This document shows, one piece after another, positions 4,710 through 21,515 of a stretch of DNA of 23,378 nt. Within the stretch, counting starts at the first letter, position 1; each line of letters starts with the position of its first letter. Under the pieces are notes generated by a model. It searched no databases. It had not been told where the DNA came from and worked only from the letters and a program-made list of their open reading frames with translations. The DNA is from Myxococcales bacterium (GTDB lineage Bacteria; Myxococcota_A; UBA9042; JABWCM01), in contig JABWCM010000086.1 of the NCBI GenBank assembly GCA_013360285.1, positions 1 through 23,378 on the forward strand. The letters are read 5' to 3'. The position numbers were made by a program, and so were the translations under genes.

Positions 4710-5512
4710 GATCCAAACGCCTCATATCGACGAAGTCCCATGCGCCAGACAAAGGACGCCAACAAACCAAGGGTCGTTACCCAAAAAAGCTGCAGCCCAA
4801 GTTCAAAAACAACATTTGACCAAGGTAAGCGGTTGGAGAAAACGTCCACCGGCGTTCCCAGCAAAGCGCGAAATGGAAGCCACCGTGCAACGTCGGCCAT
4901 CGACTCGGGCATTACAGCAAATGGAATCAAATAACCGGAAAACAATGCCCAGATCCCAAACCAAAGGTTGTAAAGTCCCAGAGTCTGCCCAAGCCAGAAC
5001 GCGAAACTTCCAAACAGCCATTGGATGCAGAAATTGCCTAACCACGCGAAAAGCGTTGAAATCAGAGCAATGGGAACGTAAATCGCATCGAAGTTACTGG
5101 CCAGTTCCGGACGCCACCACCAAATCAAAAGCACAATCGGCACCAAAATTACCAATCGAATCGGAATCGCGGCTAGATTTTCAGCGGCAAACCATAGACC
5201 GGGGAACACAGGCCGAAGAAGCGCGGACGACAATCCGCCTGTGCGAATCTGATGGTTCAGCTCCCACACCACCCAGGCGCCGCTGAGTTGGCGAACAATG
5301 AGAGTCGCAGCAAAGTAAAGAGCAAACTTTCCCTGATCGAATCCGCGCACTGGTCCATCCATCGCGACGCGATCCCATACCGCCAGCATGATGAGCGGCA
5401 AAGTTGCACTCAATATCCACAGCACCATTTCCGCCCGATATGCGACCATTGAGGCAGCGCCGACGTTGAGCAAGGCGGGAAATTCGCGAAGCGACCGAAA
5501 AAAATGTTTCAT
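4706..5512 (-). CDS. ABC-2 family transporter permease (first permease of the exporter)
   Basis: The 268-aa protein is a polytopic membrane protein with a Trp-rich hydrophobic composition typical of ABC-2 permeases. It overlaps both the ATPase gene and the downstream permease gene by 4 nt. Confidence 0.7.
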   Translation of the reverse strand: MKHFFRSLREFPALLNVGAASMVAYRAEMVLWILSATLPLIMLAVWDRVAMDGPVRGFDQGKFALYFAATLIVRQLSGAWVVWELNHQIRTGGLSSALLRPVFPGLWFAAENLAAIPIRLVILVPIVLLIWWWRPELASNFDAIYVPIALISTLFAWLGNFCIQWLFGSFAFWLGQTLGLYNLWFGIWALFSGYLIPFAVMPESMADVARWLPFRALLGTPVDVFSNRLPWSNVVFELGLQLFWVTTLGLLASFVWRMGLRRYEAFGS

Positions 5513-6531
5513 TGCCGACCGTTGCGAGTTTCACCTTCGCCGCGTTGGAACAACCGAGCAATAATCGATTCAAGCGAGGCGTCTTCGACGGACAGCTCGA
5601 TGTCGGGAATGTCGACTAGCAGTCGGTTTACAATTGAATTCACAACTGAAGCGTGGACGGACGCAACGGTAGACCCACCCTCGCGAACAAATGGCCCGTA
5701 GGCAGAAAGCGCATCCAAAGTCATTTCGGTATGTGAACGCAGCAGAATCCGTCGATGGGGCGCGATATTTCTCGCCAACGCGCCGAGATCGCCATCATAA
5801 ACAAGTTTTCCCCCATCAATCACAATCACTCGGTTACATAACGCGGCGATATCTTGCATATAGTGACTGGTAAGTAACACGGTTACTCCGTACCGTTGAT
5901 TCCATTCTGCGATGAAGGTTCTAACCGTTGCCTGCATGGTCACGTCCAAACCAATCGTCGGTTCGTCAAGAAACAGCACATCCGGACGATGGAGTAGTGC
6001 TACAGCGAGTTCACACTTCATACGTTCGCCAAGAGACAAGTTCCGGACCGGTCGATCGAGTAGGGCACCCAAATCAAGCAGATCGCGAAGCTGCCCCACA
6101 GTTTCCTGAAACTGCGCGCGCGAAATCGCATACAACGCTCGATTCAGCTCCAGAGACTCGTATGGTGGAAGATCCCACAAAAGTTGCTGCTTTTGGCCCA
6201 TTACAAGGGTGATACGTCGAAGAAAATCCGGATCGCGGTCCGACGGACGAAATCCGCGGACATTGATCTGACCCGACGTCGGGACCAGCAAACCAGACAA
6301 CATTTTCAGGGTGGTTGTTTTCCCGGCCCCGTTGGGACCCAAAAAACCGACGCGTTCACCCGGCTGGATTTCGAACGTAACGTTTTGAACCGCGTGAACC
6401 TGTTGCACTTCACGGGAAAACAATGATCTCAGGCTGCCAACCAGTCCGGGCGGTTTTTGGGGAACGCGGTAGGTCTTACAGAGGTTCTCAACACGTATCA
6501 CATGTTTGTCCACGCAAGTTGGGCAATCCAA
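5509..6531 (-). CDS. ABC transporter ATP-binding protein
   Basis: Motifs present: Walker A GPNGAGKTT, signature LSLGERMK, Walker B VLFLDEPT, H-loop TSHYM. The annotated start is TTG. A GTG giving VIRVENLCKTY... about 10 codons downstream looks like a more typical ABC N-terminus. Confidence 0.85.
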   Translation of the reverse strand: MDCPTCVDKHVIRVENLCKTYRVPQKPPGLVGSLRSLFSREVQQVHAVQNVTFEIQPGERVGFLGPNGAGKTTTLKMLSGLLVPTSGQINVRGFRPSDRDPDFLRRITLVMGQKQQLLWDLPPYESLELNRALYAISRAQFQETVGQLRDLLDLGALLDRPVRNLSLGERMKCELAVALLHRPDVLFLDEPTIGLDVTMQATVRTFIAEWNQRYGVTVLLTSHYMQDIAALCNRVIVIDGGKLVYDGDLGALARNIAPHRRILLRSHTEMTLDALSAYGPFVREGGSTVASVHASVVNSIVNRLLVDIPDIELSVEDASLESIIARLFQRGEGETRNGRQ

Positions 6532-6576
6532 GCACCAGCCTCAACGCCCAAATTCAGCAACCTGCACAAAATTTGA

Positions 6577-7221
6577 TTAGTAAAACTTAATACCGCACCC
6601 AAGTGCCTTGGTTGTCGCCGGATCAATAGTTTTTCCACCAACCAGCGCCAACATTGCATCCCTCAGGTAGGATTTTCTTACGTCCGTGGGTTTGTTTGCG
6701 TTGTCGTCTACGGCTCCGTAATAAACAAGCTTCCAGTCCTTGTCGAACAGAAAAATCTCCGGTGTACGACTTGCACCGAACGCTTTTGCAAGCTTAGAGC
6801 CTTCGTCTACTACGTAGGGAAACTGAAAATCTGCTGCCTTGGCTCGTTCCGCCATTTTTTCCAAACGGTCGTCGGCGTATTTTGCGGGGTCGTTGGGATT
6901 CACAGCGATCGTATGAATTCCTTTGTCTTTAAACTCCCGTGCTATCTCTGCGATCCGGCCTTCCCAAGCCTGCGCCCACGGACAATGATTGCAGGTAAAA
7001 ACCACAAGACTGCCAACTGAACCTTTTATGTCATCCAGGGAAACAGCGTCACCAACGGCAGCTTTCATTTTTTCTGTCCGAAGTGGGGCCGATGCACCGA
7101 TAGTCAGTGCCGCGGGTTTGTCTTCGTCCGCACTGGAGTGCGTAACAAAGGATGTCAACGTTAACAACAACACCACCAACACAGAAAGAATCAAGTGTTT
7201 TTCAACAATCATTATATTCAC
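6577..7221 (-). CDS. Membrane-anchored or secreted thioredoxin-fold thiol:disulfide oxidoreductase (TlpA/ResA/redoxin-like), CxxC = CNHC
   Basis: The 214-aa protein has an N-terminal hydrophobic segment, LILSVLVVLLLTLTSFVTHSSA. It carries the motif VVFTCNHCPWAQAW and has the overall beta-alpha-beta redoxin layout. Confidence 0.75.
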   Translation of the reverse strand: MNIMIVEKHLILSVLVVLLLTLTSFVTHSSADEDKPAALTIGASAPLRTEKMKAAVGDAVSLDDIKGSVGSLVVFTCNHCPWAQAWEGRIAEIAREFKDKGIHTIAVNPNDPAKYADDRLEKMAERAKAADFQFPYVVDEGSKLAKAFGASRTPEIFLFDKDWKLVYYGAVDDNANKPTDVRKSYLRDAMLALVGGKTIDPATTKALGCGIKFY

Positions 7222-7242
7222 TTGTTGTGCTCCTAAGTTAGT

Positions 7243-7854
7243 TTACTTGAACACGCTGGTCCGAATAAGATCCTGAAATTGGGTACTGGACAATTTTCCC
7301 TCACTCATGCCAAGTAATCGACCGTTGCCGTCGAAAACCAGAGTCGTAGGAAGCAATCCAGACCAGCGGGGGCTGATCCCTTCAGCGAAATTCTGGTCAT
7401 CTTCGCAATTTACGTACGCTGGCCCATGGTAACCCAGATTATGCAATAATGCCGCTGCTTTATCCCAATGTTCGTCAAAGTCCATCGACACAAATATCAA
7501 CGCGATTTGTTTTTTCTCGAACTCCGACGTCTGGGCAATCAACTCCGGGAGTTCTTCGACACATGGCTCGCAATATATCGACCACAGGTTCACTGCCACG
7601 GCGGTCGCTTTCATATCAACAATAATATTCAGCAGTTGCGACGCCGTGACCGGAACAGGGTGACTTTTTTCGAAATGATACGCAACAACCTGGGTGGGTT
7701 GTTCGATAGCGGAGTCAATCGGTGCGCATTGCGCTGTTCCAATCAAGAAAACCAAGGAGACCCATAATGAAGCAGCCCTCAGAATCACAAAGTCCTCATG
7801 TAACGCGCCAACAAACACCTTTCTTATCCTCACTGAAGACGGCTCAGAAATCAA
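7243..7854 (-). CDS. Second TlpA-like thioredoxin-fold protein, CxxC = CEPC
   Basis: It carries the motif VNLWSIYCEPCVEELPEL. The N-terminal signal-like stretch is ASLWVSLVFLIGTAQCAP. The annotated start is TTG at 7854, and a GTG at the VILRAAS... position is a plausible alternative start. Confidence 0.7.
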   Translation of the reverse strand: MISEPSSVRIRKVFVGALHEDFVILRAASLWVSLVFLIGTAQCAPIDSAIEQPTQVVAYHFEKSHPVPVTASQLLNIIVDMKATAVAVNLWSIYCEPCVEELPELIAQTSEFEKKQIALIFVSMDFDEHWDKAAALLHNLGYHGPAYVNCEDDQNFAEGISPRWSGLLPTTLVFDGNGRLLGMSEGKLSSTQFQDLIRTSVFK

Positions 7855-8167
7855 CCGATTGTGCCTCTGATTCCACTTTTGTTATCACGCGATCAGGCAC
7901 CCAAATAAACCGGTCTCCCGTCCCAACGGAGCAAAGTACACGCACTGGTTGTCTCAATTATGGGCTCTGCTATATGTGTGCGTTTATCGCGATTCAGAAC
8001 AATATCTCACAAAGTGAAGTCTCTCAAACGTCAAGATCTACCAGAATCCGCATTAAGGAAGCCAAGTCGGATGTAGATATGCGATCATTTTGTCACATTT
8101 TATCCGGGCGTGAACTGAGTTACAGTAACCAGGTTTTTTTGAGATACGTGCGGAATCGGACACTCAT

Positions 8168-8173
8168 GAGAGG
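8168..8173 (+). promoter_or_regulatory. Shine-Dalgarno (GAGAGG) for the yqiJ-like gene
   Basis: GAGAGG lies 5 nt upstream of the ATG at 8179. Confidence 0.45.
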
Positions 8174-8178
8174 ACCCC

Positions 8179-8976
8179 ATGAACGAACTGCTGGAAACGG
8201 CCATCGCATACCCCACGGTCGTTTTTACAATTTTGCTAGGAGTGCTGCTCGTCTATTGGACACTGGTTATTATTGGTGCATTAAGCATAGAAACGTTTCA
8301 TGTCGATACCGGCGTCGATGGAACGATCGACGGGGCGGCGTCTGCCAGTGGGGACGCCGCAGCCGAGTCATTCGGCGCCGAGTCGACGGGAACAGCGGAG
8401 ATCGGCGATCAGGGAGACGGTGGAGACACTCATGGTGGCACAACGAACCTTTTGGAAGCATTAGGACTAACCGGCGTTCCGATTACTGTATCGCTTAGCT
8501 TTCTGGTTCTTTGGTCGTGGCTACTGACGATTGTCGCCATCGACTGGACACGGAATTTACTTGTCGACACTACCCTGCGCCCTTGGGCTCACACTGGGAT
8601 AGCTGTTGGCTCGATTGCAGCCTCGATTTGGCTTACTGGCCTATGCATAAGGCCCCTGCGACGCGTCTTTCAAAAACATCCGACCACCGAGAGTCGAAGT
8701 TTGGTGGGCGCGGTGTGCCAAATTTCGACGCTGCGTGTGGACTCACGTTTTGGGCAAGCCTCGGTGGAGTTAACCGGTGCAAATCTGTTACTCCCCGTTC
8801 GTTGTCTGGAGCAAAACCAACTCACGAAAGGGTCCGAGGCGCTGATCATTGAATTTGACGAAACAAAAGAGGTCTTCCTGGTTGTACCAATGGACCACGT
8901 GCTGACGTCGGAGAAGCGTTCGACATCCAGTAACTTGCCATCAAACCAACGCTCCCAGGCGAACAAACAGAGTTAG
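8179..8976 (+). CDS. yqiJ: YqiJ/NfeD-like inner-membrane protein (flotillin-associated; three TM segments, acidic Gly/Asp/Ala-rich loop, C-terminal OB-fold-like soluble domain)
   Basis: Three TM segments: TM1 YPTVVFTILLGVLLVYWTLVIIGAL, TM2 VPITVSLSFLVLWSWLLTIVAI and TM3 GIAVGSIAASIWLTGLCI. A low-complexity DG/A-rich acidic linker separates TM1 from TM2. The beta-rich C-terminus (…ISTLRVDSRFGQASVELTGANLLLPVRCL…EALIIEFDETKEVFLVVPMD) is typical of NfeD/YqiJ partners of SPFH proteins. It sits immediately upstream of a flotillin gene, as in the E. coli yqiJK and B. subtilis yuaF-floT arrangements. Confidence 0.65.
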   Translation: MNELLETAIAYPTVVFTILLGVLLVYWTLVIIGALSIETFHVDTGVDGTIDGAASASGDAAAESFGAESTGTAEIGDQGDGGDTHGGTTNLLEALGLTGVPITVSLSFLVLWSWLLTIVAIDWTRNLLVDTTLRPWAHTGIAVGSIAASIWLTGLCIRPLRRVFQKHPTTESRSLVGAVCQISTLRVDSRFGQASVELTGANLLLPVRCLEQNQLTKGSEALIIEFDETKEVFLVVPMDHVLTSEKRSTSSNLPSNQRSQANKQS

Positions 8977-8978
8977 TA

Positions 8979-9010
8979 GAACATGTGGTGAGGTAACTTA
9001 ACACATGTTC
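8979..9010. repeat. Perfect 9-bp inverted repeat (GAACATGTG ... CACATGTTC) with a 14-nt loop, sitting between the yqiJ-like stop codon and the flotillin start
   Basis: 8979-8987 gaacatgtg is the reverse complement of 9002-9010 cacatgttc. It begins 3 nt after the TAG stop at 8974-8976. No U-tract follows it, so it is not a classical intrinsic terminator. Confidence 0.5.
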
Positions 9011-9070
9011 AGCGCAAAGAGGACAGTTTCTGTCAGGTATGAGCCTAAAATACGTTAATTTTCGCGACCG

Positions 9071-11182
9071 ATGGCTACCAAAAAAGGAGAAAAATTCGTC
9101 ATGTCACTTTATGCCGTATTAGTAACAGTTGGGGCAATTGTCATTTTGGTCCTGGGTATGGCCGGCCTATTAATGAAATTTTACAGAAAAGTGGACCAAG
9201 GAAAGGCATTGATTGTCAACAATCTTAAAGCCGATCCGGACGTAGTTTTCACAGGCGCCGTTGTTTACCCAATTATCCATCGTGCTGAAATTATGGATAT
9301 TTCCGTAAAAACGATCGAGATCGATCGACGCGGAAAAGAAGGACTTATATGCAAGGACAATATTCGAGCAGACATCAAGGTAACGTTCTTTGTTCGCGTC
9401 AACAAAACCCGTGAAGACGTGCTCAAGGTCGCGCAATCGATCGGCTGTGTTCGGGCGTCCGACCACAAAACTCTGGAGGATCTGTTTGCGGCAAAATTTT
9501 CCGAGGCGTTAAAAACCGTCGGAAAACGAATGGAATTTGAAAGCCTTTACGAGGAACGAGATCGTTTCCGAGACGAGATTATCGACATCATCGGCCGCGA
9601 TCTGAACGGTTATATCCTCGAAGACGCTGCGATCGACTATCTTGAACAAACGCCACTGGCGAACCTTGATAGCAATAACATTTTGGATGCTCAGGGAATA
9701 CGTAAAATTACCGAGCTGACATCGATTCAGCATGTTCGAACCAACGAGTATGCCAATAACGAAAAGAAATTGATAAAAAAACAGGATGTCGAAGCAACAG
9801 AAGCGATATTGGAGTTAGAGCGCCAACAGGCCGACGCTGAATCAAAACAAAAAAGGGAAATTGCAACCGTTAGGGCACGCGAAGATGCGGAAGTGCTTCG
9901 CGTACAAGCAGAGGAGCGTTTAAAAGCCGAGTCCGCGCGAATCAAGACCACGGAGGACTTATCAGTTCAAGAGGAGAACAAAAATCGACAAGTCGAAGTG
10001 GCGAAGAAAAACCGTGAACGTGTAGTGGCCGTTGAAGGTGAGCGTGTAGAAAGGGATCGTGTAATCGAACAAATCGGCAGGGAACGCGAAACAGAATTGC
10101 TGCGGATCGCCAAAGAAAAGGCGTTGGAAGTTGAACGAAAGGCAATTCAAGACGTGATCCGGGAGCGCATCGCGGTTGAAAAAACCGTCGCAGAAGAGGA
10201 GGAACGAATCAAGGACTTGCGGTTGATTGCAGAAGCAAAACGCAACAAAGAAGCCGTGGTGCTGGCCGCAGAAGCCGAAGCCCAAGAGTTGCTTGTCAAA
10301 GGCATCAAAGCAGCCGAGGCGGCCGAACAGGCATCCAAATACAAAGCCAAAGAACGGCTGGTCCTTGCCGACGCCGACTTGGAAGCCACCGACAAAGCAG
10401 CCAAAGCGAAAATCCGGCTTGCCGAAGGCATTCAGGCAGAAGAAGCTGCAGCCGGCCTAGCCAGAGTTCGTGTTAAAGAAGCGGATGCGATAGCGCTCGA
10501 AAAGGTCGGATTTGCAGAAGCCCGTGTCCTAATCGAAAAGGCGCAGGCAGAAGCGCAGGGAAACGAAGCGTCCGGACTGGCTCGAGCCCGGGTATTGGAG
10601 GCGGAGGCCGCCGCAAACGAAAAAGCGGGACTCGCATCGGCTCGAGTCCGACGCGAACAAGGAACAGCAGAAGCACAAGCCATCTTGGAAAAGGCCAACA
10701 GCATGCGCGCTCTTGACGAAGCAACCCGAGGGCATGAAGAATTCCGCCTGCGTGTGGAAATGGAGAAGTCGCTGGGACTGGAGGAAATCCATGCCAAACG
10801 ACAAGTTGCCGAAGCCCAGGCACGCATTTTAGGCGACGCCTTCAAAACCGCAAAGATTGATATTGTCGGGGGCGACGCGGCGTTTATCGATCGAGTCGTA
10901 AACGCGGTCTCGTATGGGAAGTCACTCGACGGGGCGGTGAAGCACAGCAACACGTTATCAACTCTTGGGGCGGACTATCTTAACGGAAAGTCACGGCTGC
11001 TGGATGATGTCAAGAAACTCATAGCAACATCCGGACTTTCTGCGACCGACCTGCAGGCATTAACAGTAACAGCATTCCTTACAAAAATGATGCGAAATGC
11101 AGACGGGGGAGCCAAAACCCATCTTCAGAATCTTTTGGCAAAAGCAACAGAACTTGGCCTAGCCGACACCAATTTAAGTTAA
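9071..11182 (+). CDS. yqiK: Flotillin / SPFH (band 7) family protein, YqiK/FloT-like, with a long Glu/Ala/Lys-rich coiled-coil region
   Basis: N-terminal membrane hairpin MSLYAVLVTVGAIVILVLGMAGLLMKFYRK. The SPFH core includes ...IVNNLKADPDVVFTGAVVYPIIHRAEIMDISVKTIEIDRRGKEGLICKDNIRADIKVTFFVRV.... About 350 aa of EA-rich repeats follow (ARARVLEAEAAANEKAGLASARV...), then a C-terminal helical domain. The real start is more likely the ATG at 9101 (MSLYAV...), which has AAGGAG 11 nt upstream, than the first ATG at 9071. Confidence 0.85.
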   Translation: MATKKGEKFVMSLYAVLVTVGAIVILVLGMAGLLMKFYRKVDQGKALIVNNLKADPDVVFTGAVVYPIIHRAEIMDISVKTIEIDRRGKEGLICKDNIRADIKVTFFVRVNKTREDVLKVAQSIGCVRASDHKTLEDLFAAKFSEALKTVGKRMEFESLYEERDRFRDEIIDIIGRDLNGYILEDAAIDYLEQTPLANLDSNNILDAQGIRKITELTSIQHVRTNEYANNEKKLIKKQDVEATEAILELERQQADAESKQKREIATVRAREDAEVLRVQAEERLKAESARIKTTEDLSVQEENKNRQVEVAKKNRERVVAVEGERVERDRVIEQIGRERETELLRIAKEKALEVERKAIQDVIRERIAVEKTVAEEEERIKDLRLIAEAKRNKEAVVLAAEAEAQELLVKGIKAAEAAEQASKYKAKERLVLADADLEATDKAAKAKIRLAEGIQAEEAAAGLARVRVKEADAIALEKVGFAEARVLIEKAQAEAQGNEASGLARARVLEAEAAANEKAGLASARVRREQGTAEAQAILEKANSMRALDEATRGHEEFRLRVEMEKSLGLEEIHAKRQVAEAQARILGDAFKTAKIDIVGGDAAFIDRVVNAVSYGKSLDGAVKHSNTLSTLGADYLNGKSRLLDDVKKLIATSGLSATDLQALTVTAFLTKMMRNADGGAKTHLQNLLAKATELGLADTNLS
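9084..9089 (+). promoter_or_regulatory. Shine-Dalgarno (AAGGAG) serving the internal ATG at 9101 of the flotillin ORF
   Basis: The sequence is aaaaaaggagaaaaattcgtcATG, and the second Met starts directly at the TM hairpin. Confidence 0.45.
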
Positions 11183-11237
11183 TGAACTGAAGTACAAAAT
11201 TAGACTATCTCGTTCAGTGTGAAAACGCGACCACGTC

Positions 11238-14200
11238 GTGGTTGATGCGCGGACACTGGGACTTGTATCCAGCAGGTCGCCGCAAAAGGTCAATACAATG
11301 ACAGCCGAAGAATCCGAACCACGGAAATCAGCAATCGATACCGCAGTAGACAAAGGAACTTATGAGGTTCTGCGTGACAGACTGGTCAAATCGTCTGCCG
11401 ATCTTGCTAACCGTGCGGACCGCCTGAATGTGAGCCGAGTGGAACACTTCGGCACAAGTCGGTTTGAAGTCATTAGCAGTGATCGAATTCGTACCATCAA
11501 CAACTGTGTCCCGCGCGATATTGTCTCAGTGGGAAATCATCTGATATTTGGATACAATGTCTTTATTGGTCTTCGTAAACAAACCGTCATAAGCGATGTT
11601 CTATCGGTTCACCGATTCCAGGACGAAGAAGGAAAATTCTCGTTTGAGCCGCTCACATCGGGCCATGAGCCGGATTATTTGGTTGATCCTCGGTTTGTGA
11701 GGGATTTCGACGAACTGTACCAGTATTATAAGGATGCTAAATTAGTACAACTAAGGGTTAGAGACCAAAAGTTATTGGCCGTATTTCAAATAGGGCAATC
11801 AATCAAGGACATTCGGGTATTACGTTGGAGTATTGCAAACGATTTTCGCTTAAATTACATCGACAACCGCGGCGAGCGTGACCACATATTTCCTCCAACT
11901 CACGATTTTGAATGGACCGCAACGACCAGGTCCGATCATCGTCACGGGTCCCACCCTCACGTGTCGATCCTGGACGAAGTCTTCGTAGAAACCATTGGTG
12001 GTGACCTTACCGTTAAAATCGAAGACAATACCGCAACTGGGCTAGGCGTATACTCAGAACCCGTGGACGATCCCCGACAGAGTTTAGACGACGCCGAGTT
12101 CTTGTACGCACGGGTGGGACCGCTTGTCCTATTGAAAATAAAACCGTATCGCGAGCTTTCTTATCGCTATCTCGTATTCAATACTCGAACTCGCACGGTA
12201 TCTCGGATCGACGCAATTGGACAATCCTGCGTACGACTGCCGGAAGACCACGGAATTATTTTTCCTGGAGGCTATTATCTCCAAAATGGCGAATTGAAAT
12301 TATTTGATCTCGATATTTCAGGAATGATCTTCAAACGTATGGTTCGTTCACCCAACGGAGAAGATGTTCTATACGTATTTCATGACAAGGACGGCGGACG
12401 ACGCATTCTCCTGCCTTACAATTTGATTCGCAAAGAGGTAGTCGCTGCCGTCCCCTGCCATGGATTTACACTGTTTCCGGACGGCAAAATGGTCCTGTTT
12501 CGTGCCACCACCGATGAACCCACACGCGTTCATCCGATGCAAGTTTGGCGAACTCCGTTTGTGTCTGACGAAATCGCCGCAATACAGCCAGTAGGAACCT
12601 CGTTTCTTGCAAAAATCGGCAACGCAGAACTGGTACGGGGCATTTCCGACGCGTTGTCGATCTGCAGGATGGTGGAGGACAGCCAACCTAGTCTGCGAAA
12701 ATACGAGGATTTGATTCAAGCAACCCGCCGTGTGTCGGACAATTATCTTTGGTACGGCGACGCAGACGCACATGACCTGAGATCGCCACTTCACGAAATT
12801 CAGTCTGTAGCTGACCTTATTGCTGATGAATTTGAAAAGGTTCAGGTGCAACGCCAAGCGACCCGGCAGGCATTGAATGGTGTCCAAGCAGATCAAGCCA
12901 GGGTTCTCAACGAGCTACGTCCCCAGGATTTTCGGGCTATTGAGTCGTTTGTGGAGACGTTGGCAACCATCCGCAACCTGCGCGGCCGCATCGTCGGCCT
13001 CCGTGATCTACGATATATCGACTTACCTGATGTCGACACACTGGAAGCTGCCAACACGGCGGCGTTTGCGATGGTCAGTAAAGAGACGGTCACCTTTTTG
13101 CTAAAGGAGGAGGCTTTAACACCTTATCTAAGTCGAATTTCAGAGTTGACCAACAGCGCAGAGAAATCGCAGACCGTAGTCGACCTTGCGACACAGCAAG
13201 AGGCTGTAGACAAAATCAGCCAGGGACTTGAACTTTTGTCGGAAATCGTCGCGTCTCTGAAGGTCGATGATGCGACAAAACGAACCAAGATTTTGGAAAA
13301 GACGTCGGAAGTCTTCTCCCAACTCAACAGAACACGTGCTATCTGCCAAACAAGGCGAAAAGAACTGCGATCAACGGAAGCAAAAGCCGAATTCAGTGCG
13401 GATTTCCGCCTTTATGCTCAAAGTGTACAAAGTGCCATTGGACTAGCCGATACACCGGAAAAATGCGACGACCAACTTGCAGCGTTGCTGCTGCAACTTG
13501 AAGAACTGGAGAGCCGCTACAGTGAGTTTGATGAGTTTCTGACCGAACTTGCGGTCAAACGCGAGGACGTCTACGAGGTACTTTCTGCAAGAAAACAGAC
13601 GCTTGTGGACGAAAGACAAAGAAGGTCCCAAAACGTCGTGGTCGCCGTAGACCGAATTCTTTCGGGTATCGCGCGGCGTAGCGCAACATTTCAATCGCCC
13701 GATGAACTGAACACCTATTTTGCGGCCGACCCAATGGTCGCAAAGGTTTACGAGTTAAGCGACAAATTGCGCACACTTGGCGATGGACTACGAGCTGACG
13801 AAATCATCAGCCGCCTCAAGGTGACAAAGGAGGAATCTGTACGCGCGCTGCGTGATCGATCCGATCTGTTCGAGGACGGCGCAAAAGTGATTCGACTCGG
13901 ACGTCATCGATTTTCTGTCAATACATCTCTTGTTGACCTTACTCTAATTCCGCGCGATGACAAACTTGTACTTCACCTTACTGGTACAGATTATTTCGAA
14001 GTGATCGACGAGCCCCAGTGGACCGAAACCAAGGAATTCTGGGCTCAACAAATCGTGTCCGAAACCGACCAGGTTTATCGAAGTGAATATTTGGCGTCAT
14101 GCATATTGGCAGAAGCAGAAAGTGAACAAAATGGCGTATCCGTCCGCGACCTCATTGAGGCGGCGCGGTTTTTTGACTCGCTATCAGCACTGGTCAACAA

Positions 14201-16850
14201 AACCGCCGCCGAGCGTTACGACGAAGGATACGAGCGAGGAGTCCACGACCATGATGCAGCGCTGATTCTTGCCAAAATAGTACCGATGTACTTCGGCGCA
14301 GGCTTACTTCGTTATCCCGCCACAGCGAGAGCCATCGGCACTTTGTTTTGGGCACGGTGCGACAATACAACTCAAAAATCCAACTGGGAAAGGCGAGCGA
14401 AAAACCTGTTGCGATTACGCGAAACCTTTGCCCACAGCAATGCCATAGACATATTTGTGGAGGAGTTGTCGGATGCGGTTCTCTCGTTTTTCTCCGCGAA
14501 TGAAATTAAGATAAATAGTGATATATCTCACTTAGCATCCAGATATTTGTTGGAAGAGGTGGGACAATCACCCGTACGCTTTGTAGTGAGCCCCGAGGCA
14601 ATTCACCTTCGTGATGCGTTGGCCAAAAAGCTCAACAGCCAGTCGGTGTTTCGTCAGCTCACCGATGATTTGGCAGGACTCTCTGGTCACCTACGACCTG
14701 CATATGAACTAGCCACAGCGTGGGTCCGCAGCTTTGTTGAACAAAGCAACGATCCAGCACTTTCAGACTATGCGCACCTTTGCGAAGAAACAGCAGTGTT
14801 GTTGTTAACGGAACCGTCTCTGCCAAGAATGGCATTTACCACAACTACCCCGACAGTTGTGGATGTTTCCGAACTTCTTGGTCAGCACCCTCGCATAATC
14901 AATCGAACCATGAGATTACGTTTGGACGAGTTTGTTTCTCGGCTTACGGTCTTTCGTAAACATCGAGCACCATCATTTAGACATTATGTCAACTCAAGGA
15001 ATCGTTTTCTTCAAACGCAACGTGCAAGATTGCGTCTGGACGAATTGAAGCCGAAAGTCATGAGCACGTTCGTGCGAAATCGACTCATCAACGATGTTTA
15101 CCTGCCGCTGATAGGAGATAATTTAGCAAAACAAATCGGAACCGTTGGCGAAACTGGTAGAACGGACAGAATGGGAATGTTGCTGCTGATTTCACCGCCT
15201 GGGTACGGAAAAACGACACTTATGGAATATGTAGCCAACCGCTTGGGGCTCATTTTCGTAAAGGTCAATGGACCCTCGTTGGGGCACGGCGTAACGTCGA
15301 TCGATCCCGACGAAGCACCCAACATGACGGCACGTCAAGAGGTAGACAAAGTCAATTTTGCATTGGAGTTGGGTAACAACGTGATGCTGTATATCGATGA
15401 CATACAGCACACCAACACGGAACTCCTTCAGAAGTTCATCTCGCTTTGTGACGCCCAGAGGAAAATCGAGGGAGTGTGGCGCGGGCAAGCCAGAACCTAC
15501 GATCTTCGAGGAAAACGATTTTGTGTGTGTATGGCTGGAAATCCATATACGGAATCGGGACAGCGGTTTCAACTACCCGACATGCTCGCAAACCGGGCCG
15601 ACACATATAATCTCGGTGAAGTGTTGTCGGGTCGTGATGAACTGTTTCGGTTAAGTTACGTTGAAAACAGCCTCACTTCCAACCCGGTGTTGGCACCCCT
15701 TGTGACACGTGATCCGCAGGATATTTCTACATTTGTAGCTATTGCACATGGTCAGAATCGGTCACCGAGTGAACTGAAGTACAGTTATAGTGCGGCCGAG
15801 CAGGAAGAAATCGTGCTCGTCCTCAGGAAATTGTTTCGGATCATTGAGGTCGTATTAGCGGTAAACCAGCAGTACATCTTGTCTGCATCCCAAGAAGACG
15901 CGTATCGAACGGAACCACCGTTTAAGTTGCAAGGTAGTTATCGAAACATGACCAAACTGGCATCAAAAGTAGTCGCGGTTATGAACCCCTCCGAACTGGA
16001 GTCGCTGATTGATGATCATTATGCCTCTGAGTCCCAGACTCTTACGACTGGAGCGGAACACAACCTTCTTAAATTAGCCGAAATACGTGGGAAATTAACG
16101 GATGAACAAAACAAACGATGGGCAGAAATCAAAAAAAGTTTTGGACGTAATCAAGTGATGGGTGGGCGCGATGCTGATCCTGTTACTCGAGTAACCCAGG
16201 TACTCGGTAGCTTGGGCGAAAGACTGGACGCAATCGCCTTGGCGGTGGATTCCGCGGTCCGCAGCGAAACAGCAAACATTTCGCCGGCGGAAAAGATCAA
16301 CCAAGGTCTTACGGATATGGGTATCCATCTTGCTGCAATCGCGAAAGCCATTACCAACGTTGAACACAACGTGGCCGCACAGCAACAATCTTCTGTGACA
16401 CTCCAATCAGCACTGCAGCCAGTGGAGAAAAACCTAACAGGAATACAGCGTGCTCTTCAGACTCTGGTCTCTGTTTCCCAAAGCGGAGCGGACAGATCAC
16501 TCACAACCGCTTCAACGATACAACCACTGATTGACCAAATGACACAACTCATAGCAACACTCGCGAAAGCTCGATTCGGCGTGGAAATTGTCAACATGCC
16601 GCCTCCGGCTGTCCATGACCTGGTCTCCAAACAAATACAAATCATTGAGCAATTGATGATTCCAGTTCTGCGCTCACTGGGTCATAACCTAAAGGGGTCG
16701 AAAGCCATTTGGGACAAACTTGGCGAGCTAATTGAAAAACTCCGTGAAACTGACATGCGGGATATCGCCAGCGCTGCCCGTACAGTAGAAATGGTCTCCC
16801 TTTTTGGAAATGAACCCAACGAAAATGACCGTAATACAAACAATGGTTAG
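11238..16850 (+). CDS. Giant (about 1,850-aa) soluble multidomain AAA+ ATPase of unknown function. It has an N-terminal beta-rich region, a long helical/coiled-coil middle, a MoxR/dynein-like AAA+ core near residue 1300-1500 and a Gln-rich helical C-terminus. It resembles the large proteins generically annotated as DNA-repair-ATPase-like.
   Basis: This is a single uninterrupted ORF. The track start is GTG at 11238, and the first ATG is at 11298 (MTAEESEP...). AAA+ motifs: Walker A LLLISPPGYGKTTLMEY (nt about 15201-15218), Walker B VMLYIDDIQH (about 15385-15410, DD rather than DE), sensor-1 CVCMAGNPYT and an arginine in MLANRADTY. I saw no hydrophobic TM segments. It starts 56-116 nt after the flotillin stop on the same strand. 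Confidence 0.8.
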   Translation: MVDARTLGLVSSRSPQKVNTMTAEESEPRKSAIDTAVDKGTYEVLRDRLVKSSADLANRADRLNVSRVEHFGTSRFEVISSDRIRTINNCVPRDIVSVGNHLIFGYNVFIGLRKQTVISDVLSVHRFQDEEGKFSFEPLTSGHEPDYLVDPRFVRDFDELYQYYKDAKLVQLRVRDQKLLAVFQIGQSIKDIRVLRWSIANDFRLNYIDNRGERDHIFPPTHDFEWTATTRSDHRHGSHPHVSILDEVFVETIGGDLTVKIEDNTATGLGVYSEPVDDPRQSLDDAEFLYARVGPLVLLKIKPYRELSYRYLVFNTRTRTVSRIDAIGQSCVRLPEDHGIIFPGGYYLQNGELKLFDLDISGMIFKRMVRSPNGEDVLYVFHDKDGGRRILLPYNLIRKEVVAAVPCHGFTLFPDGKMVLFRATTDEPTRVHPMQVWRTPFVSDEIAAIQPVGTSFLAKIGNAELVRGISDALSICRMVEDSQPSLRKYEDLIQATRRVSDNYLWYGDADAHDLRSPLHEIQSVADLIADEFEKVQVQRQATRQALNGVQADQARVLNELRPQDFRAIESFVETLATIRNLRGRIVGLRDLRYIDLPDVDTLEAANTAAFAMVSKETVTFLLKEEALTPYLSRISELTNSAEKSQTVVDLATQQEAVDKISQGLELLSEIVASLKVDDATKRTKILEKTSEVFSQLNRTRAICQTRRKELRSTEAKAEFSADFRLYAQSVQSAIGLADTPEKCDDQLAALLLQLEELESRYSEFDEFLTELAVKREDVYEVLSARKQTLVDERQRRSQNVVVAVDRILSGIARRSATFQSPDELNTYFAADPMVAKVYELSDKLRTLGDGLRADEIISRLKVTKEESVRALRDRSDLFEDGAKVIRLGRHRFSVNTSLVDLTLIPRDDKLVLHLTGTDYFEVIDEPQWTETKEFWAQQIVSETDQVYRSEYLASCILAEAESEQNGVSVRDLIEAARFFDSLSALVNKTAAERYDEGYERGVHDHDAALILAKIVPMYFGAGLLRYPATARAIGTLFWARCDNTTQKSNWERRAKNLLRLRETFAHSNAIDIFVEELSDAVLSFFSANEIKINSDISHLASRYLLEEVGQSPVRFVVSPEAIHLRDALAKKLNSQSVFRQLTDDLAGLSGHLRPAYELATAWVRSFVEQSNDPALSDYAHLCEETAVLLLTEPSLPRMAFTTTTPTVVDVSELLGQHPRIINRTMRLRLDEFVSRLTVFRKHRAPSFRHYVNSRNRFLQTQRARLRLDELKPKVMSTFVRNRLINDVYLPLIGDNLAKQIGTVGETGRTDRMGMLLLISPPGYGKTTLMEYVANRLGLIFVKVNGPSLGHGVTSIDPDEAPNMTARQEVDKVNFALELGNNVMLYIDDIQHTNTELLQKFISLCDAQRKIEGVWRGQARTYDLRGKRFCVCMAGNPYTESGQRFQLPDMLANRADTYNLGEVLSGRDELFRLSYVENSLTSNPVLAPLVTRDPQDISTFVAIAHGQNRSPSELKYSYSAAEQEEIVLVLRKLFRIIEVVLAVNQQYILSASQEDAYRTEPPFKLQGSYRNMTKLASKVVAVMNPSELESLIDDHYASESQTLTTGAEHNLLKLAEIRGKLTDEQNKRWAEIKKSFGRNQVMGGRDADPVTRVTQVLGSLGERLDAIALAVDSAVRSETANISPAEKINQGLTDMGIHLAAIAKAITNVEHNVAAQQQSSVTLQSALQPVEKNLTGIQRALQTLVSVSQSGADRSLTTASTIQPLIDQMTQLIATLAKARFGVEIVNMPPPAVHDLVSKQIQIIEQLMIPVLRSLGHNLKGSKAIWDKLGELIEKLRETDMRDIASAARTVEMVSLFGNEPNENDRNTNNG

Positions 16851-16955
16851 TTCAAATTGGGCAAAGCAACCAGTAGAACCAGACCGCACGGTTTCCGAGA
16901 TCCGTGAAGCAAACGATAGCGGTTTTACCACGATATGAGATCCGGTTAGGCAATC

Positions 16956-18068
16956 ATGATGGATCTGAACACTCTGAGAATTTGCACAAGAATAGCTTTT
17001 CGATCCTGGATGGACTCTTTTTCTCAAGGTCCGTGTAACTATTTTGTTGCAAATTCAGCATTATCGAAAAAAGTCGGGTGCGGGTCGTGGGCGAAGATGT
17101 TGCGAATTGGCCAGGGAAAAGTTGAGGAATGTCGAGAGATTGCCGTAGTGTTTTTTGCGAACGAGGCAACCCAAATTCTCCGTCACCAGCGTGCCAACTT
17201 ATTTTTGGGCAAGCCAGCGCCGTATGTGACCCATGCCTGGCTTTGTTTGGTAGTCGCCTTGCTGTCGTTCGCGTTGAATTCAGCATGTAAACATCAATCG
17301 TCACCAGTATCCCCGCCGTCCCCGACGACGACCACCGCCCATCGGGCGCCGCTGTCTGTCGTCCCTGAGTTCACATCGAAACCAGCGACGCCTCAACAGC
17401 AAGACGACGAGGCACCAATCAATCCCATCTCGGTAAATCTGAATAACACGAACCTAGGCAGCACATCGACATCGTCGGATTTGGTCTGGTTATCTCATCC
17501 AACGCTTCCGTTTTCAATCACGGCAACCGAAATTTCGGTTCAGCAATTCAAATCTTGCGTCATGAACGGAAAATGCATTCCCCAGAATCGTAAACCATGC
17601 AATTTTGGCGTAGAAGGCAAAGAAAATCATCCCATGAATTGCATAAATTACTATGGAGCGGAGGAGTTTTGTCACTTTGCCGGGGGGAGAATCTGCACTG
17701 AAACGGAGTGGCTCGCGGCCTGCTCCGGCAGCAATGGACGCGCCTTCCCCTACGGCAACGAATTCGACATTTCTGTATGTAATCACCAAAGCGCCACATC
17801 GCCGACATCGGCAAAACCAAAAGACACCGCACCCGTGAAGTCATTCGGTCAGTGTGAGGGCGGCCTGCCGGGTCTCTTCGACATGGCCGGCAACGTTACT
17901 GAATGGGTAAATGGTTGCAAGGACGACTATTGCAAATTTCGCGGGGGCGGGTTTGTAAACAACGATCCAGTGGAAAGATTTACAGGTTGCAGCGGAGTGT
18001 GTTCGGGAAACAAAAAAGGATTTCTTTCTCCCACTATCGGCATTCGCTGTTGCCGAGATGCGGATTAA
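16956..18068 (+). CDS. Exported FGE/SUMF1-domain protein (formylglycine-generating-enzyme family fold). It has an N-terminal segment, then a TM/signal helix, then a Pro/Ser/Thr-rich linker before the domain.
   Basis: The C-terminal domain carries hallmark FGE-sulfatase motifs: ...ENHPMNCINYYGAEEFCHFAGGRICTETEWLAACSG...RAFPYGNEF...FDMAGNVTEWVNG...RGGGF... followed by Cys-rich ...CSGVCSG...IRCCRD. The hydrophobic helix is AWLCLVVALLSFALNSAC (a possible lipobox if translation starts at the GTG at 17226 or the ATG at 17098). The low-complexity linker is SPVSPPSPTTTTAHRAPLSVVPEFTSKPATPQQQDDEAP. Confidence 0.7.
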   Translation: MMDLNTLRICTRIAFRSWMDSFSQGPCNYFVANSALSKKVGCGSWAKMLRIGQGKVEECREIAVVFFANEATQILRHQRANLFLGKPAPYVTHAWLCLVVALLSFALNSACKHQSSPVSPPSPTTTTAHRAPLSVVPEFTSKPATPQQQDDEAPINPISVNLNNTNLGSTSTSSDLVWLSHPTLPFSITATEISVQQFKSCVMNGKCIPQNRKPCNFGVEGKENHPMNCINYYGAEEFCHFAGGRICTETEWLAACSGSNGRAFPYGNEFDISVCNHQSATSPTSAKPKDTAPVKSFGQCEGGLPGLFDMAGNVTEWVNGCKDDYCKFRGGGFVNNDPVERFTGCSGVCSGNKKGFLSPTIGIRCCRDAD

Positions 18069-18086: not shown

Positions 18087-19121
18087 TTAAAGCCGCTGCG
18101 CTCCAGCCGCTGTCACATGTGAGAACAATGCCTCCAGGGAATTATCCCGAGCAACGACGCGATAAATGAGAGCGCCGGAAGATAAAACTACCGTCGCAAG
18201 ATCTCGATACGCCTGATCCGGCGATTCGGTTAGTAATTCAAGTACGTGGTCGCCTGCAACCTTCAGTTCTCTAACATGTGGCAACCCAATGAGAGCTTTT
18301 GCCAGTTTTCGAGCGTTGTCGACCTCAAGCTCAATCCGATGAGGATATCGGTCACGTAACTGACTTAGTAACGAGCCGATGTGGCCCATTCCGAGCAGCC
18401 GCCCGTGTGCCAAAATTCCCACTCGATCGGTTAGGCTCTCAATTTCGTGAAGAACGTGCGAGGTTATCAACACAGTACGCCCATGATTGCCCAACCATTC
18501 AATATGTTGTCGTAATCGCTGACGATTCGGCGGATCGACACCGAGAAAGGGTTCGTCCAAAAGGACAACTCCTGCATCGGCAACCAGTGCCAGACCCAGC
18601 TTGAGCCGCTGGCGCATTCCTCGGGACCAGGTTTCTACCTTACGAGCACCGTCGGCCGTCAGACCAACGAGTTCCAGCGCACTAGCAGCATTGGTTTTTG
18701 CCTCAGACACGCTGCACCCTCTCGCCAAAAACGCAATCTCTAGGTTTTTCAGCCCAGAAACATTTTCATAGAAAGCCTCAACCGCCGGAACCAGCGTGAT
18801 CTTACTTCGCACGGCCGCGCTAAAAAACGGTTCCTCACCGAAAACCGTCGTTTTTCCCTCACGTGGAAGAATTAACCCAGTTAGAACCCTCATGAGAGTC
18901 GTTTTTCCGCTGCCATTTGGACCGACAAGCCCAGTAATTCCTGGGCCAAGGCCCAACGTCACTCGACTCAACCCAACAACTTCACCGTAAAACACGGTAA
19001 CATCCCTTAAAAGGGCGACTGAATCGATCGGACTATCATCCGATGCACCCTTCAAGTTCGTCACGGAATCATCTCCTTTTTTGCGCGAGCGTGGATCCCC
19101 ATATAACCAAGCAGGCCCCAC
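18087..19121 (-). CDS. ABC transporter ATP-binding protein with a C-terminal accessory domain (the distal gene of the four-gene ABC cluster)
   Basis: Motifs present: Walker A GPNGSGKTT, signature WSRGMRQR, Walker B VVLLDEPF, H-loop TSHVL. The annotated ATG overlaps the upstream permease gene by 61 nt. A downstream GTG (about VTNLKG.. or VALLRDVTVFYGE) may be the true start. Confidence 0.8.
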   Translation of the reverse strand: MGPAWLYGDPRSRKKGDDSVTNLKGASDDSPIDSVALLRDVTVFYGEVVGLSRVTLGLGPGITGLVGPNGSGKTTLMRVLTGLILPREGKTTVFGEEPFFSAAVRSKITLVPAVEAFYENVSGLKNLEIAFLARGCSVSEAKTNAASALELVGLTADGARKVETWSRGMRQRLKLGLALVADAGVVLLDEPFLGVDPPNRQRLRQHIEWLGNHGRTVLITSHVLHEIESLTDRVGILAHGRLLGMGHIGSLLSQLRDRYPHRIELEVDNARKLAKALIGLPHVRELKVAGDHVLELLTESPDQAYRDLATVVLSSGALIYRVVARDNSLEALFSHVTAAGAQRL

Positions 19122-19852
19122 GCCAACAAGACTCCAAAGCCCAGCAACCCAATCATCGCGCGGTCCTTACCGTCATTGAACAAGAACGCAGTCAAAAATG
19201 TGGACGAGCGCACGGGACCGACTGGAACTGCGTCGGTTCCGAACATGCCCTGAGCCAACCCGTCGGGTACTGTCAAAAGTATAATTGCCAAGACGACGGC
19301 CCAACGTGTTTGTTTGGTGACGGCACTACAACCAACGGTCATTCCCGCCAACCCCGTGGCGGTTGCACCGGCGACAAGGACGGCTTTCGCAATCATCAGT
19401 CCGGATTGGGCAAAGGTCACATGTACGAGAATGCCCGCTTGCAGCAAAGCGACCACCGCGGCAGGTACGCACAACAGCAACGCAACCGGCGCCCACACCG
19501 ACGTTAACTTACCAATTGTATAGTGCCACGGTAGCACGGGGCGAGTCGCGTATAGAAACAATACATCCTCATGACGATCCCTCGCTATGCTTGGAGTCCC
19601 AAGTCCCAGCGCCAAAAGAACGACCACGCGCGTCTGGACCTCCAGAAAACGATAAACGGGATCCCAGTCCAACGTTCGTGAGAAATTCTTATCTAACCAG
19701 GCTTGCCCCACCAACACCGTGGTAATAACCAAAACCGGCAAGATACTGAACAATGCCAATATCTTCACCAGCCGGAGCTGCCATGCAAGTCGCAGTTCAC
19801 GGCGAGCGATGGTGCTCACGACATGCCTTGACGTCGGCGCCTTATGTACCAT
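19061..19852 (-). CDS. ABC-2 type transporter permease
   Basis: The 263-aa protein has six or more hydrophobic helices. It overlaps the upstream ATPase gene by 11 nt. Confidence 0.65.
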   Translation of the reverse strand: MVHKAPTSRHVVSTIARRELRLAWQLRLVKILALFSILPVLVITTVLVGQAWLDKNFSRTLDWDPVYRFLEVQTRVVVLLALGLGTPSIARDRHEDVLFLYATRPVLPWHYTIGKLTSVWAPVALLLCVPAAVVALLQAGILVHVTFAQSGLMIAKAVLVAGATATGLAGMTVGCSAVTKQTRWAVVLAIILLTVPDGLAQGMFGTDAVPVGPVRSSTFLTAFLFNDGKDRAMIGLLGFGVLLAWGLLGYMGIHARAKKEMIP

Positions 19853-20780
19853 GGTGTTCGGTACCCTCCATCATGTGAACAACCGCGTCCTCAAGGCTTG
19901 CCAACTCCGGCCCCAGCGAACGAACCTCGGCGTGACGTTCTGCTACTACACGCCAAAAGGCGCGCCAATGGCTGTCGTCATTGGCTACAAACATCACTCC
20001 GTTGGGACGAACCTTGGTGACTACGACACCGTACGACGTTAACAACGCAGCAAATGTCGCATCTATACCATATCCTTCGGCAGATATCGGACCTCCCGTA
20101 CTACCAGTGAGTTGTTGTTTCGTACCGTGATATGCCACCGTCCCCTCGCTGAGCAGCAGCATCTCATCGCAAACAACTTCCGCATCCGCCATGATATGGG
20201 TGCTCATCAAAATACGACGCCCTTGATCACGCAAATCGCGAATTAATCCGAGTAACTGAACACGACCAGGCGGATCCAAACCAATCGTAGGTTCATCTAA
20301 AATAAGTATCTCTGGATCCTGCACCAGACTCATCGCCAGTTTACACCTCTGCTTCATGCCGGTGGAAAATCCCGAAGTGGACCGGTATCGCTCCTCACCT
20401 ACAGCCAGCGCATCCAACGCACGATGGGCTCTACGCAGGGCATCTGAACGTCCGAGACCGCTCAGCATGCCGGCAAAGGCAACCGCGTCGACGCCCGAAC
20501 CTCCCGGGAAAATTCCTGCTTGTTCGGCCATCACACCAGCGCGAGCGCGCACTTCCATTGCCATTTCCGGCAATCGGTAACCTAACACGCGCACAACCCC
20601 CGATTCAGCCCGCAATACACCTAACAACGTTCCGATCAGGGTCGACTTGCCGGAGCCATTAGCACCAACCAAACCAACCGCTTTACCCCTCATCGCCGCG
20701 GAAATGTCCACCAAAACCGGCCGTCCACTGCGGCGAACGGATACATTCTCCAGTTCGATCCATGCCTCCGCCATCAACAC
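19842..20780 (-). CDS. ABC transporter ATP-binding protein
   Basis: Motifs present: Walker A GANGSGKST, signature FSTGMKQR, Walker B ILILDEPT, H-loop STHIM. It overlaps the upstream permease gene by 7 nt. Confidence 0.85.
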   Translation of the reverse strand: MLMAEAWIELENVSVRRSGRPVLVDISAAMRGKAVGLVGANGSGKSTLIGTLLGVLRAESGVVRVLGYRLPEMAMEVRARAGVMAEQAGIFPGGSGVDAVAFAGMLSGLGRSDALRRAHRALDALAVGEERYRSTSGFSTGMKQRCKLAMSLVQDPEILILDEPTIGLDPPGRVQLLGLIRDLRDQGRRILMSTHIMADAEVVCDEMLLLSEGTVAYHGTKQQLTGSTGGPISAEGYGIDATFAALLTSYGVVVTKVRPNGVMFVANDDSHWRAFWRVVAERHAEVRSLGPELASLEDAVVHMMEGTEHHGT

Positions 20781-21505: not shown

Positions 21506-21515
21506 CTTTTGCTCC

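Follow-up and report, generated by a model that had tools for sequence, protein, structure and literature searches.

Bacterial flotillins are ill understood, both in their roles and in the turnover of their assemblies. They are SPFH proteins, a class whose operon partners are the NfeD proteins. In the two-gene operons yqiJK of Escherichia coli and yuaFG (floT) of Bacillus subtilis, a gene for an NfeD-type transmembrane (TM) protein precedes the flotillin gene, and no ATPase gene is present. SPFH proteins, flotillins included, form large membrane-attached cages, domes or rings (PMC11260169). Flotillin deletions often show little phenotype, for example in Pseudomonas aeruginosa (PMC13086221). 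This analysis concerns a 23,378-nucleotide (nt) stretch of DNA from a Myxococcales bacterium (contig JABWCM010000086.1, positions 1 to 23,378, hereafter called the window), in which a flotillin gene and its YqiJ/NfeD-like neighbour are followed by a gene for a soluble AAA+ ATPase of 1,850 amino acids (aa). These three genes, called the trio below, are inherited together and keep one order in at least seven phyla.

Ravi et al. (mSystems 2024, PMC11237479; bioRxiv 2020) described an operon that combines a YqiJ/YuaF protein with three TM segments, a Band-7/flotillin protein and an ATPase with beta-propeller, coiled-coil and AAA+ regions. Their operons often hold CesT/Tir-PspA genes as well and, in some Proteobacteria, a PLD hydrolase; abbreviated operons (flotillin, YqiJ/YuaF and sometimes the ATPase) are more widely distributed, and the supplementary table gives exactly this gene order for Dokdonia donghaensis. 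The window has the same gene order and the same domain architectures, and matches the shorter form without PspA; the PspA and CesT-like genes of the full form are missing. An earlier reading of this DNA from its letters (the original prediction) had called it a candidate uncharacterised system, unstudied if the pairing is conserved, but the operon was already described from comparative genomics in that work. That description is brief, at a few sentences, and offers no quantification. Added here, beyond the searched passages of PMC11237479, are the near-obligate two-way linkage, the start/stop overlaps, the MoxR/AAA_5 assignment and the variable C-terminus. The survey of prokaryotic SPFH operons by Hinderhofer (2009) does not mention the ATPase, and the trio is apparently not among the nine SPFH genes of P. 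aeruginosa PA14 (PMC13086221). A literature search returned no paper containing DUF3686 or PF12458, no experimental or structural study of the trio, and no functional study of pQBR103 with SPFH or of MoxR with flotillin.

Conservation of the three-gene unit

Four plus-strand open reading frames (ORFs) span positions 8179-18068 in the ORF listing, with minus-strand genes on either side (7243-7854 and 18087-19121). The original prediction had placed here four close same-strand genes, for a YqiJ/NfeD-like protein, a flotillin, an ATPase and an exported FGE-domain protein, and its coordinates and descriptions hold by ORF listing, Pfam and hydropathy. The features are as follows.

8179-8976, plus strand: gene 1, YqiJ/YuaF-type (NfeD-like) inner-membrane protein, 265 aa (hydropathy, hhalign, synteny)
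9071-11182, plus strand: gene 2, YqiK-type flotillin, 703 aa (Band_7, YqiK identity, hydropathy, conservation profile)
11183-11297, plus strand: flotillin-ATPase spacer, 115 nt (no plus-strand terminator-like or promoter-like site)
11298-16850, plus strand: gene 3, soluble ATPase, 1,850 aa (Pfam, public annotation, homologue alignment, hydropathy)
16956-18068, plus strand: gene 4, FGE-sulfatase-domain protein (Pfam, E = 3.8e-25; hydropathy)

A search with an alignment of 24 ATPase homologues found relatives in at least 568 species genomes. Of these, the best 80 loci were fetched through the ATPase with 10-kb flanks and compared by tblastn with the window proteins; they comprise 19 Myxococcota-type, 33 Actinomycetota, 23 Gammaproteobacteria, one Betaproteobacterium, three Acidobacteriota and one metagenome-assembled genome labelled Clostridia. 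All 78 loci that retain upstream DNA have a flotillin gene (48-64% identity) before the ATPase gene on the same strand, and in 76 the two are direct neighbours. The condition under which the linkage would have been abandoned, namely ATPase homologues found mostly without SPFH/NfeD neighbours, is thus decisively contradicted. The distance from flotillin stop to ATPase start has a median of 63 nt over 73 measurable junctions, with 67 at 300 nt or less and 15 showing overlaps of -4 or -1. Such start/stop overlaps are typical of translational coupling. With spacers this short or overlapping, the trio is almost certainly co-transcribed and one functional unit. In the window, a consensus scan of the 115-nt spacer found no terminator.

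The linkage also holds when the search starts from the flotillin. Seventy-four metagenome loci were fetched by flotillin similarity (44-64% identity), 18 of them cut too short and one with only an 85-aa fragment match; the ATPase gene follows immediately downstream in all 55 informative loci. According to a hidden Markov model (HMM) of gene 1 homologues, a gene of this type immediately precedes the flotillin gene in 137 of 140 informative loci. Between pairs of loci, flotillin identity and ATPase identity rise together (Pearson 0.94), in agreement with joint inheritance, although part of this comes from shared phylogeny alone. Annotated copies of the trio are also found in Deinococcus (Deinococcota), in Hymenobacter (Bacteroidota) and on the Pseudomonas fluorescens megaplasmid pQBR103, and relatives of the ATPase occur in Proteus mirabilis, Vibrio campbellii, Halomonas and Photobacterium. 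Collectively, the trio is co-inherited as one unit, in one order and with linkage in both directions, in at least seven phyla. The proposed association of the flotillin/YqiJ pair with the ATPase is therefore conserved, reciprocal and often overlapping across phyla, an adjacency far beyond chance.

Two genome loci carry genes between flotillin and ATPase. In one (L032), these encode OmpA/DUF11-type surface proteins. In the other (L061, Lampropedia hyalina; 6506-9544), they encode an alpha/beta hydrolase, an NYN-domain protein and a Pol-beta-type nucleotidyltransferase. The inserted genes are unrelated to the module and were rejected as extra parts of it.

Gene 4 does not share this conservation. 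Its FGE-sulfatase domain stands behind one hydrophobic segment (aa 88-112 of the ORF); the start codon is uncertain, with Met at ORF positions 1, 2, 19 and 48. In the 80 genome loci the trio has no FGE homologue beside it; the single FGE match there, 6.5 kb away (L001), falls in the C-terminal domain of a kinase-like protein that is unrelated. None follows the ATPase in the metagenome loci. The closest relative of the window (L082, with an ATPase 81% identical) has the same flanking genes on both sides, and only two small ORFs take the place of the FGE gene, between the ATPase gene and an ABC ATPase gene. The FGE protein had been counted as a member of the system; absent from this syntenic locus and from essentially all others, it was rejected as a fourth component. 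These comparisons make the gene either a recent local insertion in the window or a loss in its closest relative.

The two membrane proteins

The gene 1 protein has three hydrophobic segments (~aa 4-40, 91-124 and 139-157) and a soluble C-terminal domain, according to hydropathy. Its probable kinship with YqiJ emerges at the level of profiles. Pfam and NCBIfam give no match to the full-length protein, none of the 34 members of its homologue profile has a Pfam match, and BLASTP against E. coli YqiJ is not significant. Compared with E. coli YqiJ by hhalign, the 34-homologue profile scores 92.9% (E = 3.7e-7) over 129 columns, in an alignment that spans the TM region and the C-terminal domain. The counterpart in Hymenobacter is annotated DUF1449, which is the YqiJ family.

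The flotillin starts with a single N-terminal hydrophobic segment (aa 7-39, hydropathy), its membrane anchor, followed by the SPFH/Band-7 domain (~aa 40-182) and probably a long coiled coil rich in Glu and Ala; the last ~80 aa are less conserved. The fragment aa 1-260 matches Band_7/SPFH PF01145 (E = 1.6e-11; 45 bits against a cut-off of 23.6). This N-terminal fragment is needed for a match: the full-length protein yields none in Pfam or NCBIfam, presumably because the coiled coil trips the composition filter of HMMER. The Pfam Flot model gives no match to the C-terminal half, with composition filtering again a possible cause. Identity with E. coli YqiK is 28% over 422 aa (E = 7e-35), in an alignment that runs through aa 419; a PDB sequence search gives no match. 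Compared with the flotillins of yqiJK and yuaFG, this flotillin is ~150 aa longer and belongs to a subfamily of its own that always travels with the ATPase.

Architecture of the giant ATPase

The ATPase matches DUF3686 (E = 5e-207), DUF7902 and AAA in Pfam. Translation from the ATG at 11298 gives 1,850 aa, and an in-frame GTG at 11238 is an alternative start. The ATG is favoured because a 100%-identical public record is also 1,850 aa long and because the homologue alignment agrees. The distance from the flotillin stop is 115 nt with the ATG or 55 nt with the GTG, in agreement with the 56-116 nt originally given. The absence of TM segments is likewise borne out by hydropathy; the sole hydrophobic stretch sits within the confidently folded lid of the AAA+ module. 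Sequence searches of the PDB return only short matches in the Walker A region, to Cdc48, Rix7 and Rpt.

Domain limits are taken largely from two AlphaFold2 (AF2) models, one of aa 1-1190 (52-sequence alignment, mean pLDDT 83) and one of aa 1150-1850 (mean pLDDT 73). Invariance was counted over 75 aligned sequences.

11358-11450, plus strand: N-terminal helix, aa 21-51 (AF2)
11466-12551, plus strand: beta-propeller, aa 57-418, core of DUF3686 (AF2 pLDDT ~80-90, Foldseek)
12567-13865, plus strand: very long helices, coiled-coil or spectrin-like arm, aa 424-856, including DUF7902 (Pfam, AF2)
13938-14810, plus strand: small beta unit followed by an all-helical domain, aa 881-1171 (AF2)
15165-16157, plus strand: AAA+ module with lid, aa 1290-1620 (AAA_5 profile, AF2 pLDDT >90, Foldseek)
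16158-16847, plus strand: variable helical tail, aa 1621-1850, rich in Ala, Leu, Val, Ile and Gln (low structural confidence)

In the AF2 model, the propeller has roughly seven four-stranded blades, and Foldseek matches it to propeller proteins; 72 of its 362 positions are invariant, many of them charged or polar. The long helices that follow end in a disordered linker (AF2). Beyond it come the small beta unit (aa 881-903) and the helical domain (aa 928-1171), in a region (aa 881-1171) with no Pfam match and no recognisable family. With the N-terminal 1,190 aa as query, Foldseek ranks nucleoporin, IFT-A subunits, clathrin heavy chain and Elp1 best, at TM scores of only ~0.1.

The nucleotide-binding motifs of the AAA+ module are intact: it carries a Walker A motif GYGKT (K1305), a Walker B motif LYIDD (D1367-D1368), a sensor-1 N1415 and a candidate arginine finger R1433. 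All of these residues are invariant, as are 77 of the 161 positions of the AAA core. Walker B has Asp-Asp (LYIDDIQH; nt 15396-15401) in every homologue examined, against the usual Asp-Glu, and is followed by an invariant Gln-His. A beta-hairpin modelled between helix 3 and strand 4 would correspond to the position of the pre-sensor-1 hairpin. The AAA_5 profile recognises the isolated module (25.6 bits against a cut-off of 22; profile positions 2-127 of 139) and scores below the cut-off on the whole protein (20.7 bits); the match of PF00004 spans only half of that profile. Foldseek against the PDB places MCM subunits, the MoxR proteins NorQ and CbbQ (TM score 0.5-0.58 on the target) and RuvB at the top, the E-values of MCM and RuvB being equal to or better than those of NorQ/CbbQ. 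The module, originally described as MoxR/dynein-like, is AAA_5/MoxR-like by profile and probably also by fold.

The tail differs sharply from these parts. Only one of its 230 positions is invariant and 58% of its alignment consists of gaps. The Gln-rich C-terminal helices had been suggested as the contact to the scaffold, a role that fits poorly with the least conserved and most gap-rich part of the protein. By alignment, the conserved surfaces of the ATPase are the beta-propeller and the AAA core.

A search of 1.84 billion representative proteins with the propeller region gives 754 relatives, 262 of them at E <= 1e-30. Complete propeller-bearing relatives measure ~1,590-2,040 aa, and shorter ones look like fragments from cut contigs. 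Since full relatives are always giant, the fusion of propeller and AAA+ module appears constant. The proteins of the three-gene unit are 45-60% identical across phyla, with only a few hundred 50%-identity clusters in the ATPase family, which appears compact and slowly evolving. Its members are publicly named 'DNA repair ATPase', 'DNA repair protein', 'MoxR-like ATPase', 'AAA family ATPase' or 'hypothetical protein'. The repair names seem to come only from the description line of Pfam DUF3686, 'ATPase involved in DNA repair'. Thousands of public records now carry the name 'DNA repair ATPase', for which no supporting evidence was found.

Extended versions of the operon

The window holds the three-gene short form, in which neither PspA nor DUF2170 was found, nor any other of the additional genes named below. 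In proteobacterial loci, genes for DUF2170 (YjfI/CesT-like) and PspA/IM30 precede the trio, and a rhomboid protease and a PLD-family gene often follow; one such extended operon (L035) was verified by Pfam (DUF2170, PspA_IM30, Rhomboid, PLDc_2). Among the 80 genome loci, DUF2170 accompanies the trio in 17, PspA in 13, PLD in nine and rhomboid in seven. PspA and a chaperone extend the trio in Bacteroidota too: the order in Hymenobacter is Tir-type chaperone, PspA, DUF1449, flotillin and ATPase. Further additions in some loci are a rhomboid protease, a hydrolase of the PLD family or genes related to polyamines. Like the window, most loci from Myxococcota and Actinomycetota have no PspA nearby.

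On plasmid pQBR103 of P. fluorescens SBW25 (L158, NC_009444.1, 85112-97641), the trio stands head-to-tail with a yjf-type envelope-stress cluster that comprises PspA, rhomboid, DUF2491, DUF350, DUF1190 and a glutathionylspermidine-synthase-like gene. A gene for an MvaT/MvaU-type silencer comes after this cluster. The plasmid thus offers a tractable and transferable copy of the whole system.

Possible function and comparison with known AAA+ machines

MoxR-type and other AAA+ rings remodel partner proteins. With moderate confidence, we propose that the ATPase forms rings, attaches by its propeller and arm to the flotillin/YqiJ assembly, and uses ATP to remodel this assembly or its contents in envelope stress. 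Flotillin and its YqiJ partner would sit at the inner membrane as a dome or ring on the cytoplasmic side, as in solved SPFH assemblies. The ATPase would oligomerise through its AAA+ domain and bind this structure by the conserved propeller and the helical arm, and ATP would power the assembly, disassembly or recycling of the flotillin scaffold. PspA, where present, may be a further substrate of the ATPase, or the substrates may be client proteins that the scaffold holds. All this would take place under envelope or membrane stress. The recruitment to flotillin microdomains and the part in membrane repair or stress suggested by the original prediction are likewise inferences. In such a role, the ATPase would be a soluble, non-proteolytic counterpart of FtsH-HflK/C or of Vps4-ESCRT-III, built on a different AAA+ clade. 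A bolder version is offered only tentatively, and we consider it rather doubtful: that the ATPase is the missing energy source of bacterial flotillin scaffolds and, where present, of PspA/ESCRT-III scaffolds, a ring-forming, propeller-armed motor driving their turnover.

Each of these comparisons has its limits. Like HflK/C-FtsH, the trio pairs an SPFH assembly with a dedicated AAA+ machine at the inner membrane, a pairing known here from the genes. FtsH is membrane-anchored, belongs to the classical AAA clade and bears a protease domain, and the HflK/C cage is periplasmic; in contrast, the trio ATPase is soluble, AAA_5/MoxR-like and devoid of a protease domain. PspA is a bacterial ESCRT-III homologue. 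With Vps4 and ESCRT-III (CdvC and CdvB in archaea), the trio shares an ATPase, in the trio a putative ring former, genetically linked to a membrane-remodelling polymer, PspA in the extended operons. Unlike Vps4, the trio ATPase has no MIT match, belongs to a different AAA+ clade, is ~4 times larger and has flotillin, not PspA, as its constant partner. The closest compact structural matches (TM score 0.5-0.58) lie in the MoxR family (NorQ/NorD, CbbQ/CbbO, RavA/ViaA), whose proteins measure ~260-500 aa, whereas the trio ATPase carries ~1,290 aa of propeller and helices before its AAA+ module. If the bolder version is correct, the trio would be the first of a separate class of SPFH-AAA+ machines, different from FtsH-HflK/C, and its ATPase would correspond in function to Vps4, thought to be lacking in bacteria. 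According to a 2025 review, bacteria apparently have no Vps4-like ATPase for ESCRT-III-type polymers (PMC7619361). A very strongly conserved ATPase that constantly accompanies one flotillin subfamily gives a concrete handle on flotillin function, and the predicted complex is open to study in hosts that can be cultivated, among them Myxococcus, Streptomyces, Proteus mirabilis, Vibrio campbellii and P. fluorescens carrying pQBR103.

Several points weigh against remodelling by a motor of this kind. The literature search found no interaction, localisation, expression or phenotype data for any member of the trio. MoxR-type ATPases normally work with a VWA-domain partner, and no conserved VWA gene occurs in the neighbourhood, either in the window or in the 80 loci. 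The flotillin operons of E. coli and B. subtilis work without this ATPase, which is absent from the 5,426 complete E. coli genomes searched. The Asp-Asp of Walker B implies that ATP turnover may be slow or regulatory instead of motor-like. At TM scores of only ~0.1, the coat-like matches of the N-terminal part reflect domain order (propeller, then helices) and no shared three-dimensional fold. Finally, the link with PspA is not universal, since PspA is missing near most myxococcotal and actinomycetotal loci.

Most of the weight left over goes to a closely related account, in which flotillin and YqiJ provide a passive platform and the ATPase unfolds, extracts or inserts specific membrane or membrane-associated clients, as protein quality control, without remodelling the scaffold. 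We regard it as unlikely, though a serious competitor. The MoxR ATPases NorQ and CbbQ, its closest folds, remodel client enzymes, and the strongly conserved propeller could bind a client or ligand. Moreover, FloA-NfeD microdomains of Staphylococcus aureus confine and stabilise unfolded proteins (PMC11222466). Against this account, the trio has no conserved fourth gene for a candidate client or adaptor, and a direct partner is the better explanation for a reciprocal linkage that is strictly one-to-one with a single flotillin subfamily. Scaffold remodelling remains our preferred account, although the present data fit client handling as well.

The original prediction had also mentioned a phage response. 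In a conflict system, the scaffold would sense infection and the ATPase would trigger an abortive response; in the longer versions, PLD or rhomboid proteins would act as effectors. Conflict systems commonly include large proteins that combine a propeller with an ATPase, one copy of the trio is on the megaplasmid pQBR103, some proteobacterial loci include a PLD-family hydrolase, and NYN and nucleotidyltransferase genes are inserted at the Lampropedia locus. Against these hints, PADLOC models match none of the four proteins and a phage search yields no copy, so that the suggestion finds no support in either search. The slow divergence of the family is unlike that of defence genes, which diversify fast; the flanking genes are unrelated, of housekeeping type, and vary from lineage to lineage; and the core trio has no effector domain. 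The empty PADLOC and phage searches, the slow evolution and the variable, ordinary flanks together make defence improbable. Even less credible is a DNA repair ATPase whose adjacency to flotillin is incidental to its function, which we consider most improbable. The name propagated from the DUF3686 description points that way, and Foldseek lists MCM and RuvB for the AAA+ module and the DNA-binding propeller protein YncE; yet the MCM and RuvB matches are generic for this AAA+ superclade, Pfam detects no DNA-binding or nuclease domain, and the literature search found no supporting paper. Besides, the obligate, overlapping operon partners are membrane proteins, and the extended operons carry envelope-stress genes, not repair genes.

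Upstream region and neighbouring genes

One further feature lies before gene 1.

7855-8178, plus strand: upstream intergenic region, common to the divergent thioredoxin-like gene; likely promoter region

This region is the likely promoter region of the three-gene unit. It contains a block, AACTGAGTTACAGTA (~8113-8127, plus strand), located ~50-65 nt before the start of gene 1 and kept in the closest relative, L082. The core ACTGAGTTACA is identical in both, and the remaining spacer has diverged and is poorly alignable. The block may be a promoter or operator element. A sigma-70 consensus scan called no site at 8113-8127 and nothing above chance in the upstream region. Because site counts equal chance, the promoter and terminator consensus scan is uninformative except for the terminator-free spacer between flotillin and ATPase.

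Divergent from the flotillin unit are two tandem thioredoxin-fold genes (AhpC/TSA/Redoxin-like; 6577-7854, minus strand), an arrangement also present in L082 and not in other phyla. The window further contains two separate ABC-transporter clusters on the minus strand (3912-6531 and 18087-23293). In one, an ATPase accompanies two ABC2_membrane_6 permeases; in the other, three proteins without Pfam match are interspersed with two ABC ATPases, and a SAM methyltransferase is also encoded. An S8 peptidase is encoded at 854-3238 and a zinc-ribbon protein at 3357-3887.

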